A stretch of 64,000 bases of DNA from an uncultured SAR86 cluster bacterium (lineage in GTDB: Bacteria > Pseudomonadota > Gammaproteobacteria > Magnimaribacterales > D2472): assembly GCA_902516285.1 (NCBI GenBank), contig CABXXT010000006.1:9780-73779 (forward strand), in the 5' to 3' direction. A model generated the notes under the pieces. That model searched no databases. It was given only the letters and a program-made list of their open reading frames with translations, and was not told the DNA's origin. The translations under genes were made by a program, and so were the position numbers. This document shows, one piece after another, positions 7,944-11,919 of the stretch (positions are counted from its first letter, which is position 1; each line of letters starts with the position of its first letter).

Positions 7944-9032
7944 ATGGGTTTTAAGTGTGGAATTATTGGACTTCCAAATGTTGGGAAATCAACTTTATTT
8001 AATGCCCTAACAAAATCTAAAATTCCTGCTGAAAACTTTCCTTTCTGTACTATTGATCCAAATGTTGGGAAAGTTTTACTCCCTGACAATAGACTTAATC
8101 AAATTAATAAAATTGTTAATACTGAAAAAATTATCCCAGCTGTTCTAGACTTAGTAGATATTGCTGGTCTCGTTAAAGGGGCGTCAGATGGTGAGGGCTT
8201 GGGCAATTCATTTTTATCTAATATAAGAGAAATGACAGCATTAGCTCATGTTGTTAGATGCTTTGAAGATAACAATATTTCACATGTAAATGGTTCTGTG
8301 GATCCTAAAAGAGATGTTGAAATAATCAATTTAGAGTTAATACTTGCTGATTTAGAATCGGTAAGTAAAAGAATATTGAGAGCTGAAAAATTACTAAAAA
8401 CTAATGATAAAGAAAATAAAATTCGCTATGAGCTGTTACATTCTATAAAAAATGAACTTGAGCTTGGAAAGCTAATAAATCTTGAGGATTATGAGCTTTC
8501 TAATCAAAAAATTATAAAGGAATTTCAATTACTAACATCAAAACCAACTTTTTTTGTTGCCAATGTTGATGAATCAGAAGATTCAAAACTTCATCTTGAA
8601 AGGCTCAAAAAAATTGCAGCGAATATAGGAGCGTCCGTTATACCGGCATCAATAAAAATTGAGCAAGAAATATCATTGCTTAGAGATGAAGAAAAATCAG
8701 AGTATTTAGAGCTTCTTGGAATGAGTGAACCAGTGCTAAACAAAATTATTTTTGAAGGATACAGAATTCTTGGTTTAAAAACTTTCTTTACAGCAGGTCC
8801 AAAAGAAATAAGAGCATGGACGATTAAAAATGGATATTCTGCACCAAATGCTGCGGGAGTTATTCATACTGATTTTGAAAAAGGTTTTATAAAAGCTGAG
8901 GTTATAGATTTTAAAGATTTTATAGAATGTAATGGTGAGCTAAAAGCTAAAGAAAAAGGAAAACTCAGACTAGAGGGTAAAGATTATATAGTTAAAGATG
9001 GAGATATCATTCATTTTAAATTTAATGTGTGA
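7944..9032 (+). CDS. ychF: Ribosome-binding ATPase YchF
   Basis: [31 protein letters not shown]-terminal TGS domain ending FKFNV. Confidence 0.97.
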
Positions 9033-9039
9033 AAATTAA

Positions 9040-9067
9040 TTGACTCTTAATATTTTGATATTATCAT
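9040..9067 (+). promoter_or_regulatory. Sigma70-type promoter for tRNA-Met
   Basis: TTGACT (9040-9045), 16 nt spacer, TATCAT (9062-9067), 9 nt before the tRNA. Confidence 0.65.
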
Positions 9068-9076
9068 TCAACGATT

Positions 9077-9153
9077 GGCTATGTAGCTCAGATGGTTAGA
9101 GCACAGCACTCATAACGCTGGGGTCGGTGGTTCAATTCCACCCATAGCCACCA
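9077..9153 (+). tRNA. tRNA-Met (elongator, anticodon CAT)
   Basis: GGCTATG/CATAGCC acceptor, CTCATAA loop, CCA end; resembles E. coli metT and lacks the initiator GGG/CCC anticodon stem. Confidence 0.93.
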
Positions 9154-9159
9154 TTTTTT

Positions 9160-9396
9160 CTATTTTTTATTAATTAAGAAAATAATTATTAAAGAAACCA
9201 GTGCAACAATGCCATTATCTCCAATGGCATCTAAGATTGTAATTAAATTTGAATAGACAATACCAACAAATGGAGCATCAACTCCAAATATTATTCCAAG
9301 TAATAAAGCAACAGCAATAACTGATAAAAGAACGTCTGTAGCTTGCTTTAAATAACTTTTTATTTTATTTAATGAATAAAAAAAATCTATTTTCAT
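9160..9396 (-). CDS. Small hypothetical membrane protein (78 aa), paralog of the upstream gene
   Basis: Two hydrophobic segments; aligns by eye with 9450-9668 (GIIFG/GIVFG, F.G.V..NL, IGDNGIVAL/LGDAGLVGL). Confidence 0.8.
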   Translation of the reverse strand: MKIDFFYSLNKIKSYLKQATDVLLSVIAVALLLGIIFGVDAPFVGIVYSNLITILDAIGDNGIVALVSLIIIFLINKK

Positions 9397-9410
9397 GAGA
9401 ATATTTTAAA

Positions 9411-9438
9411 TCAAAGGGAGATAAATATCTCCCTTTGA
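9411..9438 (-). terminator. Intrinsic terminator-like hairpin between the two small paralogs
   Basis: Perfect 12-bp stem TCAAAGGGAGAT/ATCTCCCTTTGA with a 4-nt loop, 11 nt after the stop of the 72-aa gene; only a short U tract follows on the minus strand. Confidence 0.75.
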
Positions 9439-9449
9439 AAAGTAAATGA

Positions 9450-9668
9450 TTACTTAAGTAACCCTATTAAGATTGCAGCTACTAGCAAACCAACAAGACC
9501 CGCATCACCAAGTGAAGAAACTACACCAAGTAGATTTGTGAGTACATCGCCGAAGAACCAAGTATCGCCAAAAACGATACCAGCTACAACACCTAATCCG
9601 ATAACAGCAACAAGGATCTTTGTAAGACTTGATACTATATCGCCAATCATTTTCATTGCATTATCCAT
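9450..9668 (-). CDS. Small hypothetical membrane protein (72 aa), probably highly expressed
   Basis: Strong SD (AGGGGGGAG) before ATG; 4 of 7 Ile codons are ATC and 2 of 3 Phe codons are TTC despite the AT-rich background; Gly-rich hydrophobic helices. Confidence 0.88.
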   Translation of the reverse strand: MDNAMKMIGDIVSSLTKILVAVIGLGVVAGIVFGDTWFFGDVLTNLLGVVSSLGDAGLVGLLVAAILIGLLK

Positions 9669-9822
9669 AATAACTCCCCCCTATTAAGGTTTATTTATGT
9701 TTTGCACTTTCAATCAGAACACAAAATATGGAGGGAATCAAATTCTGTTAACAAATTTAAGACACAATATTTGACTTTTTGAATTTTATCTAATAAAAGA
9801 TAAATATGTGTATTATTTATAC

Positions 9823-11919
9823 TTAATCAGCTTTATTTGCTAAAGCTTTCATTGATAATTTCATCTTTCCTCTATCAAATCCTATTAGCTTTACTTCAAT
9901 TTCTTGACCTTCTTCAAGTACATCATTTACATTTTCTGTTCTTTCCTCTGAGATTTCTGAAATATGCAGCAACCCATCTTTGCCAGGTAAAATATTTACA
10001 AATGCTCCAAATTCAACAATCTTAACTACCTTTCCCTTATACACTTTATCTAGCTCAGGTTCTTCAAGTATTCCTTCAATTATAGCTAAGCATTCTTTCA
10101 TTGATTTTTGGTTTTGACCAAATACCGATACCACTCCATCATCATTAATATCAACAGTAGCACCAGTCTTTTCTTGCATTGATTTTATAACTGCTCCACC
10201 TTTTCCAATAATTTCTTTTATTTTATCCTTATCAACCATAAATGATTTCATTGATGGAGCATTCTCAGATAATTCTTTTGGAGAAGAAAGTACATCATTC
10301 ATAATCCCAAGAATATGATTCCTGGCCGATTTTGCTTTAATGAGTGCAGATTCCATGATTGATTCGTCTATTCCAGATATTTTAATATCCATCTGAAGTG
10401 CAGTAATTCCTGTTTCAGTTCCAGCAACTTTAAAATCCATGTCACCAAGATGATCTTCATCTCCTAAAATATCTGTCAAAACTGCAAAATCATCTCCTTC
10501 CTTTATAAGACCCATAGCGATACCTGCAACTGGGCTTGTCAATGGAACACCAGCATCCATTAATGATAATGAGGTTCCACAGACTGATGCCATTGAACTT
10601 GAGCCGTTTGATTCGGTTATTTCTGATACAACTCTCATGGTATAACCAAATTCATCAACATCTGGCAATACTGCTTTTATAGCTCTTTTAGCAAGATTTC
10701 CATGTCCTATTTCACGTCTTTTAGGACCCATCGGCATTCCTATTTCTCCTACACTGTAAGCAGGAAAATTATAATGAAGCATAAAATTATCAGAGCCCTC
10801 ACCCTCGATTGATTCAATTCTTTGCGCATCTCTTGAGGAACCCAATGTTGCTACTACCATAGCTTGTGTTTCACCTCTTGTAAATAAAGCTGAACCATGT
10901 GTACCTGGAAGCACATTTGTTTCTACAAAAATAGGTCTAACTGTATCTAGATCTCTTCCATCTATTCTTGGCAAATTATTGAGGATATTCCCACGAACAA
11001 TATTTTTCTCTAATTCCTTAAATGAATTAAGCGCCTTTCCCATCTCAATTTCATCTAATTCTTCGTAATCTTCAGTAATCAATTTTTTAACATCTGATAG
11101 AGTATTGTTTCGCTCTGCTTTATTAGAAATTTTAAATGCCTCAGTTATTTGTTCTTTATATTTAGTTTCGATTTCAAAATAATAATTATTTGTATTTTTT
11201 TCCTCTTGAATAACCCATTCTTCATTTCCAGTTAAACCTTTTAGTTCATTACATGCGTTAATGACGGCTTTCATTTCTTGATGTCCAAATAAAACTGCCC
11301 CAAGCATAAGATCTTCATTCAATTCTTTTGCTTCAGACTCAACCATTAAAACTGCTTTATCAGTTCCAGCAACAACCATATCCAAATATGATTCATCTAA
11401 TTCTTCATAAGACGGATTTAAAATATATTCTCCATCTATGAAACCAACACGTGCAGCCCCCATAGGCCCATCAAAGGGAACTCCTGAGATAGTTAACGCT
11501 GCTGATGCACCTATCATTGCAGCTATGTCAGGATTTTGCTTTTTATCAGATGACATAACAGTGCAGAATATCTGTATTTCGTTTGTAAAATTGTCAGGGA
11601 ACATTGGTCTAATAGGACGATCTATTAATCTAGATGTTAACGTCTCTCTTTCTGTTGGACGTGCCTCTCTTTTGAAGAAACCACCTGGAATTCTACCAGT
11701 TGCGTAAAACTTTTCTTGGTAAAAGACAGCTAATGGGAAAAATCCTTTGTTTGGATCTGCTTCTTTTTTTGCAACTACAGTAGTCAGTACTACTAGATCT
11801 CCTATGGTGACCATTACTGCAGCTGTAGCCTGTCTCGCAACTTTATTTGTTTCTATTTTTACTTTTTGATTTCCGTACTGGAATTCTACACTTGTAGATT
11901 CTAATTTATTATTTTCCAC
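9823..11919 (-). CDS. pnp: Polyribonucleotide nucleotidyltransferase
   Basis: [41 protein letters not shown] and S1 domains; GTG start. Confidence 0.98.

Follow-up and report, generated by a model that had tools for sequence, protein, structure and literature searches.

Two small adjacent genes in the genome of an uncultured SAR86 cluster bacterium raise the question of why a streamlined genome keeps a tandem pair of related membrane proteins, and of whether the two proteins are made in different amounts. The genes lie in a stretch of 64,000 nucleotides (contig CABXXT010000006.1, positions 9,780 to 73,779 of the forward strand), which we call the window. We refer to them as gene A and gene B, in the order in which they are read, and to the source genome as G000. 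A first-pass annotation, made from the letters of this DNA, had proposed that A encodes an abundant major subunit and B a rarer paralog of a pilin-like polymer or membrane oligomer. Its observations are correct in general, but it left the strand unstated (both genes are on the minus strand), and its remarks on codon usage and on the ribosome-binding site of B call for the qualifications given below. We find comparative support for the major/minor layout, no support for a pilin, and a protein family that is undescribed as far as our searches reach.

The reading weighed here is that the two products are membrane hairpins with both ends in the cytoplasm (N-in/C-in), that the RNA hairpin between their genes sets a major/minor ratio, and that the proteins associate with themselves without helper machinery. 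Taken as a whole, we hold the chances of this reading to be about even. The elements of the locus are as follows.

9450..9668, minus strand: gene A, a 72-amino-acid helical-hairpin membrane protein, the presumed major product
9160..9396, minus strand: gene B, a 78-amino-acid paralog of A, the presumed minor product
9411..9438, minus strand: hairpin between the two genes, a stem of 12 bp followed by a weak U tract, which may act as a leaky terminator or stabilise the 3' end of the A transcript
9674..9682, minus strand: Shine-Dalgarno (SD) sequence AGGGGGGAG of gene A, 5 nucleotides (nt) before its start codon
9669..9822, minus strand: spacer of 154 bp that separates A from pnp and probably holds a promoter and 5' untranslated region (UTR) belonging to the unit itself
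9077..9153, plus strand: tRNA-Met (CAT), convergent, the downstream border of the unit

Paralogy and conservation of the pair

The two open reading frames (ORFs) of 72 and 78 amino acids had been described as aligning with each other, and they do so at a significant level. BLASTP with compositional adjustment aligns A and B with 20 of 59 positions identical (34%), 63% positives and an E value of 9e-10, and hidden Markov model (HMM) queries based on A recover B in every genome that holds A. The close homologs of A carry the name 'hypothetical protein', and their sources are given as 'SAR86 cluster bacterium' or 'Gammaproteobacteria bacterium'.

Both A and B are real genes, and each is under strong purifying selection. 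Across seven pairs of close genomes, the ratio of nonsynonymous to synonymous divergence (dN/dS, omega) ranges from 0.00 to 0.14 in A and from 0.02 to 0.18 in B. These low values, the constant length of the B homologs and the wide presence of the pair are the grounds for regarding both genes as real. There are 136 homologs of B, of nearly constant length (about 78 amino acids), and their alignment has 12 invariant columns. The hallmarks of B are a lysine-rich N-terminal end, an FGP..PF.G loop and a KK tail, and an invariant feature specific to B is an alanine in place of the second glycine of the GxxG-L motif. In a quick tree, A forms one group (Shimodaira-Hasegawa-like approximate likelihood ratio test, SH-aLRT, 99) and B forms another (SH-aLRT 100).

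With A as the query, 36 of 41 related genomes give a match, and in all 36 two matches lie side by side, A before B. A wider survey with the family profile covered 58 genomes of the SAR86 order, namely the 57 relatives that are at least 90% complete and the source genome. There are matches in 55 of the 58 genomes, and all 55 have at least two. When G000 is excluded, the pair is carried by 54 of 57 genomes and by 15 of 16 genera. The pair is missing from both g3 genomes (97% and 93% complete) and from one of the three in genus g9. The first-pass annotation had seen a pair retained among the core genes of a streamlined genome and had proposed checking related genomes for it, and the pair proves to be nearly universal in the SAR86 order. 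The source genome itself measures 1.08 Mb with 31.96% GC, is 81% complete and holds exactly two copies, A and B.

The gene upstream of A varies by SAR86 family, being pnp in f1 and other genes in f3 and f4. Because the upstream neighbours differ in this way, the pair appears to be a self-contained travelling unit, which would have to carry its own promoter. The order A-hairpin-B, with a spacer of 35-68 nt between the genes, is found in 20 of the 20 SAR86 loci examined, with varying flanks.

Within the window, the flanking genes of the pair are pnp, tRNA-Met and ychF. Upstream of A and on the same minus strand lie truB, rpsO and pnp (9823..11919). The tRNA-Met gene and ychF oppose the pair head-on, and only 6 nt separate the end of the tRNA gene from the stop codon of B (9160-9162). 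An antisense tRNA-like sequence is also located 3' of B in families f1 and f4, despite their different upstream genes. An Rfam search of positions 8900-10000 returned nothing above threshold except the tRNA. In five of the 55 pair-bearing genomes (G254, G257, G264, G265 and G266, all of family f1) there are one or two extra family matches, on other contigs or in distant places. Most of these are weaker (E values of 1e-6 to 8e-4), and one in G264 has an E value of 2e-18.

The intercistronic hairpin and signs of unequal output

The hairpin was described at first as a perfect 12-bp stem followed by a weak U tract, and this description stands. The stem has no mismatches and closes a 4-nt loop. The 76-nt stretch that includes it has a minimum free energy of -21.1 kcal/mol and a z score of -4.47, and none of 200 shuffled sequences folds as well. 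The tail after the stem reads AUUUAAAAUAUU, and the stem ends 14 nt before the start codon of B.

A stable stem-loop is predicted in 17 of 17 distinct spacers between A and B, with free energies of -16.6 to -22.6 kcal/mol and z scores of -4.4 to -8.1 relative to mononucleotide shuffles. These distinct spacers come from the 20 related loci, of which 16 passed a motif filter and the other four were examined separately. There are at least six unrelated stem sequences among the 17; the predicted hairpin is conserved as a structure and not as a sequence. A full run of T residues follows the hairpin at two loci (L019 and L021). Across loci, the 3' foot of the stem is located 4-15 nt from the ATG of B, and would therefore overlap the site that ribosomes need for initiation on B.

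The region upstream of A is also distinctive. A spacer of roughly 150 bp, among the largest in the window, had been noted here, and at 154 bp it ranks third among 61 gaps whose median is 4 bp (by crude ORF calls). An alignment of the spacers from eight loci of the genus (window positions 9669-9822 on the minus strand, L003, L004, L009, L010, L012, L015 and L016) contains blocks that are nearly invariant, such as AGTCAAATATTGTG and CA-N-AATTTGAT. No -35/-10 pair could be fixed in this alignment, its blocks fit no promoter, operator, RNA element or Rfam family, and a promoter consensus scan upstream of A gave matches at 9 of 12 positions at best. The spacer probably holds the promoter and the 5' UTR of the unit.

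The SD of A, read from 9682 to 9674, is as strong as had been claimed. Of the 13 loci shown (families f1, f3 and f4), 12 have a G-rich SD ahead of A; in the single f2 locus examined (L021), the 22 nt before the called start of A contain none. In G000, a run of five or more G residues located 3-12 nt before the start of an ORF of at least 50 amino acids occurs at only eight distinct sites genome-wide. These are gene A, four genes for TonB-dependent receptors, identified by their Pfam Plug and/or barrel domains, and three positions inside longer ORFs. The receptor genes are at C1:4303-7236, C4:92554-95481, C4:34982-37417 and C7:55456-58563 (L152-L155). In an excerpt of a published study, TonB-dependent receptors head the list of highly expressed SAR86 genes (PMC4410273). 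Perhaps a ribosome-binding site with five G residues marks the class of top expression in this AT-rich genome. Gene B was said to lack an SD, which is correct for the window, but only 150 of 836 crude gene starts in G000 show any SD-like motif. Since most starts lack one, its absence is not unusual in this genome and by itself says little about the expression of B.

Codon usage and substitution rates also set A apart from B. The claim that A uses C-ending codons is right for isoleucine and phenylalanine, where ATC makes up four of five codons and TTC two of three, against genome backgrounds of 15% and 16% (836 long ORFs). Summed over 15 loci, which are related and not independent, so that the sums are descriptive, the orthologs of A have ATC at 31 of 87 positions and TTC at 27 of 51, and those of B have 14 of 94 and 13 of 81, equal to the genome background. 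In six moderately diverged genome pairs, dS is 0.33-0.70 for A versus 1.25-3.7 for B, and dN of A is several-fold below that of B. The near-identical pair L010/L015 gives a dS of 0.09 for A versus 0.20 for B. Low dS and dN are the pattern expected of a heavily expressed gene, which is what A would be.

Contigs assembled from RNA libraries cover part of A in four of four runs from four studies. One contig of 326 nt, with no differences from the window, bridges B, the hairpin and A (9272-9597). The summed contig depth is 225-2079 over parts of A, 0-34 over B, mostly 7-85 over pnp with single-bin spikes to 422, and near zero at 9699-9745; because contig depth and uncovered parts cannot rank genes, these depths are not used as evidence. 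The same holds for one X8 contig (depth 547) that ends at 9407, 4 nt past the stem, in a single study. In two runs from different studies (X1 and X10), contigs stop matching at 9671 and 9672 and run on into adapter letters. These ends fall in the gap that separates the SD of A from its ATG and could be a real RNA end or an artefact of the G run.

The comparative evidence supports the major/minor layout proposed at first: the stem-loop in every distinct spacer, the G-rich SD in nearly all loci shown, codon and dS biases confined to A, and the short distance between the stem and the start of B. One possibility is that the unit's own promoter and the very strong G-run ribosome-binding site drive A. 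The stable hairpin would then end or stabilise most transcripts after A, and in those RNAs that read through, its position near the start of B would hinder ribosome loading on B. With a strong SD on A, and with a hairpin that would both end transcripts and impede initiation on B, the outcome would be much A and little B. We consider it fairly probable, judging from sequence features, that A is made in bulk and B sparingly. Both proteins would insert with N-in/C-in topology and work inside the inner membrane as small subunits that associate with themselves, with A forming homo-oligomers in which B is the rarer variant, and with no dedicated machine for export or assembly.

Protein architecture and distribution of the family

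The consensus of the family begins with an amphipathic N-terminal helix, with conserved K, W, T and E residues, and a hydrophobic helix that ends in FG. These are followed by a P-F-F-G loop, an amphipathic helix with an invariant N, an LGxxG kink, a second hydrophobic helix and a basic tail. The AlphaFold2 (AF2) model of A has a mean predicted local distance difference test (pLDDT) score of 87.7 and helices at residues 2-33, 40-55 and 58-71, and that of B (pLDDT 75.3) has the same three-helix pattern. A prediction of the A–B complex, run with both alignments and without controls, scored 0.00 in both runs and is evidence neither for nor against contact.

In four alignments, the loop and second helix together contain 0.1-0.7 K/R residues per protein versus 1.3-2.3 D/E residues. 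There are 1.6-4.4 K/R residues in the N-terminal end and 0.9-2.8 in the C-terminal tail. According to the positive-inside rule, basic ends lie in the cytoplasm. Because the basic residues are at the ends and the loop is acidic, both ends should be cytoplasmic, and we infer that A and B are N-in/C-in helical hairpins of the inner membrane whose acidic loop faces the periplasm.

No characterised family with an ordinary role was found to which A and B could be assigned. Pfam gives no significant match for A, B, 49 family members or 15 members of the Planctomycetota type. The Pfam family DUF4022 (PF13214) is hit by A only, with an E value of 1.9 and 9.3 bits, below the cut-off of 25. There is likewise no significant match for the family proteins in NCBIfam and none for A in PHROGs, the best E value against a PDB sequence profile is 0.31, and the ESM Atlas returns unnamed clusters only. 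Foldseek finds no match in the PDB at E <= 0.001, and a wide structure search with VIA gives a best Z of 5.0 to unrelated helical proteins with no pilin in 50 rows, although helical hairpins are poorly discriminated by such searches. Full-text searches on highly expressed or abundant SAR86 proteins list nothing about the family, not counting the supplementary expression tables, which might list gene A. Thus, the family is undescribed and has no detectable relatives as far as these searches reach.

The family is nevertheless large. Only 102 of 1.84 billion cluster representatives match A at E <= 0.001, and a profile built from the distant hits finds at least 2,161 proteins at the same threshold among 8,000 candidates scored. 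The listed matches have 75-106 amino acids, mostly 77-85, none has a Pfam domain, and those with names are nearly all 'hypothetical'. A scan of one genome per species confirmed at least 483 of 600 pattern matches. The best 80 of these comprise 79 from Planctomycetota (Pirellulales, Phycisphaerae and Sedimentisphaerales) and one from Candidatus Aegiribacteria, and all 80 come from uncultured organisms. The gene is single in these 80 loci: 79 have one matching ORF, one has none by the ORF calling used, and none has two separate ORFs. The sole double-copy case among them is L060:3779-4237 (Pirellulales), where two copies lie in one frame across unknown bases and probably represent a tandem pair broken by an assembly gap. 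No gene cluster recurs as a conserved neighbour in more than 11 of the 80 loci. Against a model of the Planctomycetota type, the median scores are 56.8 bits for B and 48.5 bits for A. Among 301 evenly drawn Gammaproteobacteria there are four with a match, of which two belong to SAR86 and two others have one copy each.

There are also 12 IMG/VR contigs that carry a family member. At L143:4887-5204 (also in L144 and L145) the member is found in a phage replication module, with an HMM E value of 1.4e-23. It is flanked by PHROGs genes for a single-strand DNA-binding protein and a UvsX-like recombinase, and genes for a DNA polymerase, a dCMP deaminase, an exonuclease and a DnaB-like helicase are nearby. 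Five IMG/VR contigs with a single A-like gene (47-62% identical) encode a protein of about 200 amino acids that adjoins this gene or lies within about 1.1 kb of it (L134:5309-5908, L135:5291-5893, L140:5291-5893, L136:4266-4874 and L139:3209-3865). Three of these proteins were compared with Pfam, and two match Gcw_chp (PF09694, E values of 3e-7 and 3e-5). All five resemble an ORF on contig C15 of G000, and several other ORFs of these contigs resemble cellular genes of G000.

Alternative explanations and significance

A number of points weigh against the reading set out at the start. At most loci there are only 2-6 T residues in the 10 nt after the hairpin, and with so weak a U tract the structure may stabilise a processed 3' end and not terminate transcription. 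It may also be the ordinary terminator of A, with B read from a promoter inside A. Gene B has an SD of its own elsewhere (GGAG in f2 locus L021 and AAGAGG in L008). The codon signal of A in the window is mixed, in that the claim of C-ending codons fails for asparagine (AAC at neither of two codons) and aspartate (GAC at none of five). In the quick tree, A is nested among members from outside SAR86 and B sits on a long branch; because the two are not supported as sisters, a simple local duplication is not demonstrated. At the level of the proteins, each hydrophobic stretch is only about 15-17 residues long and, in the AF2 model, packs on an amphipathic stretch of the other arm, so that the picture of two membrane spans may be wrong. 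Oligomerisation of A or B is pure conjecture, and we consider it doubtful.

Some of these points are shared by the alternative that survives best, which we regard as unlikely but as a serious contender. It holds that A and B are functionally independent paralogs, where the hairpin is merely the terminator of A, B has a promoter within or after A, and the proteins neither touch nor occur in a fixed ratio. Such independence would suit the distinct invariant features of B (the lysine-rich end, the FGP..PF.G loop and the alanine for glycine), its long-branched group, the SD that it has in some families and the way in which the family works as a single gene outside SAR86, to judge from the 80 Planctomycetota loci. 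It is difficult to reconcile with the constant order and spacing of A, hairpin and B in all 20 SAR86 loci even where the flanks differ, and with a gap between hairpin and B that leaves no room for a promoter. The RNA-library contig that bridges both genes also speaks against it, although DNA carry-over is possible.

A second alternative, to which we assign a low probability, is a small tension- or ion-gated channel ('mini-MscL-like', or a viroporin- or holin-like pore). In such a channel, a ring of hairpins would have its amphipathic helices lining the pore and its interfacial helices sensing the state of the membrane on both leaflets. The elements follow the same order as in MscL, with an interfacial N-terminal helix, a Gly/Ala-rich first transmembrane span ending in FG, a segment outside (periplasmic), a second span and a basic stretch, here the tail, and the polar N45 and the D/E of the LGxxG kink are conserved within hydrophobic helices. 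The proportions differ: the MscL proteins fetched have 128-148 amino acids and a C-terminal cytoplasmic helix, whereas members of the A-B family have 72-80 and end 1-10 residues after the second hydrophobic helix. Membership in MscL was dropped, given a Pfam MscL hit in only one of 49 members (E 0.14, below the cut-off) and an hhalign probability of 2% over 13 columns, no better than that of a mirrored control, in a comparison for which only four MscL sequences passed the filter. MscL (PF01741) is above the Pfam cut-off in none of 41 SAR86-order genomes (G000-G040, of which 22 are at least 90% complete), which would favour a substitute channel. However, this absence carries little weight because, of 61 Gammaproteobacteria sampled, 48 also lack MscL and 13 have it. 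The family member on phage contigs would fit a pore, but bulk expression is atypical of channels.

There is small probability, in our view, that the proteins are accessory subunits of a larger complex in the membrane, such as one for transport or respiration, whose other genes lie elsewhere. Many bacterial proteins of fewer than 80 amino acids with one or two spans are of this kind, and A shares its unusual SD with the genes for TonB-dependent receptors. A subunit would be expected to keep company with its complex, and there is no conserved neighbour beyond the pair in SAR86 and none in the 80 Planctomycetota loci. The scattered distribution (four of 301 Gammaproteobacteria, hundreds of Planctomycetota and phage contigs) also tracks no complex that we can name. 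A relation to TatA, suggested by the hinge-like FGP..P..G loop, was dropped as well: there is no Pfam hit to TatA/B/E (PF02416), and G000 has its own tatA, tatB and tatC, the canonical TatA and TatB matches adjoining TatC on contig C2.

The first-pass annotation had placed A and B near the F/VirB2-type pilins, as the major and minor pilin of an extracellular or periplasmic polymer of conjugative (type IV secretion) type, and this is the weakest of the alternatives. The resemblance lies in size and in a three-helix hairpin, since mature conjugative pilins of the TIGR03745/DUF2976 and VirB2/TraA kinds have a mature part of about 70-75 residues with an amphipathic start and two hydrophobic helices. 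Seven of eight alphaproteobacteria-like family members give weak, near full-length hits to TIGR03745, the NCBIfam model for a membrane protein of integrating conjugative elements. Their E values are 0.003-0.3 and their scores 11-17 bits, with the cut-off at 52.5. The best of these (E 0.0031, 17.3 bits) is still far below that cut-off. The alignments span about model positions 30-102 of 105, starting at 30-43, past the leader of that family. Neighbouring paralogs are seen among TIGR03745 genes as well: of the seven Gammaproteobacteria with a match, two have such a pair, L106/L110 (G088:C72) and L105/L111 (G220:C438).

The tests of kinship and of mechanism turn the other way. An hhalign comparison of the family (65 sequences) with seven TIGR03745 proteins, a profile from which the loci of one unpublished genome were left out, gives a probability of 0.6% and an E value of 0.09 over 21 columns, and reversed-sequence controls give the same level (0.3-0.6%). 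There is no match to Pfam TrbC (PF04956) for A, B, the 49 members or the 15 Planctomycetota-type members. A and B have no leader peptide and open with an amphipathic helix, which begins at residue 2 in the AF2 models. Their inter-helix loop is acidic, whereas TIGR03745 loops follow K-F-N-E-A-R-x-G-K/R (3-4 K/R), which implies an opposite orientation in the membrane. VirB4 (PF03135), the ATPase of such systems, was not found in G000 or in five pair-bearing relatives that are 92-97% complete, in a search that was positive for a control genome, nor was TrbC/VirB2 found in G000, and the gene stands alone in the 80 Planctomycetota loci. Pilins come with a leader, a basic loop and a type IV secretion ATPase, and none of these accompanies the A-B family in the genomes searched. 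Membership among the pilins is therefore rejected, a pilus-like mode of action is very unlikely, and the pilin reading as a whole is barely credible.

We return to the reading of A and B as N-in/C-in hairpins made in a major/minor ratio. In the photosynthetic puf operon and the fimbrial pap and fim operons, a hairpin located behind the first gene keeps its product, the bulk subunit, in large excess over the later ones. The arrangement is alike in its strongly translated first gene, its stem-loop and its weakly expressed downstream gene or genes under the same promoter. The differences are that the proteins are unrelated, that the downstream gene is a paralog here, and that the ratio proposed here is deduced from DNA features. 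Thus, the operon logic is of a known kind, and it is the protein family that is undescribed. Proteins of the Pmp3/YqaE type offer another comparison, as they are small, have two hydrophobic helices and no operon partners, and occur in many lineages. However, no such family appears among the Pfam hits, and members of the A-B family are longer, with conserved amphipathic helices and the LGxxG kink.

Few bacterial groups are as abundant in the surface ocean as SAR86, and little is dispensable in its genomes of 1.0-1.8 Mb. The A-B pair is probably a major component of the cell membrane, because it is kept in 15 of 16 genera with an SD that is otherwise reserved for TonB-dependent receptors. A structural or conditioning function, of the kind served by an abundant small membrane protein, seems most likely, with a channel in second place. 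A bolder conjecture, unlikely but worth stating, is that A ranks near the top of SAR86 inner-membrane proteins in abundance and forms a new homo-oligomeric assembly (a ring, pore or lattice) that B nucleates, caps or tunes, and that hundreds of Planctomycetota species use the protein singly and marine phages have borrowed it. If so, it would be a new class of membrane-organising protein and not a subunit of a known system. In any case, defining the family would name thousands of 'hypothetical proteins', and the pair would offer a compact natural case in which an intercistronic hairpin sets the ratio of two paralogs. The pair may also be a lead to a mechanism, so far unrecognised, by which bacteria build or condition their inner membranes.

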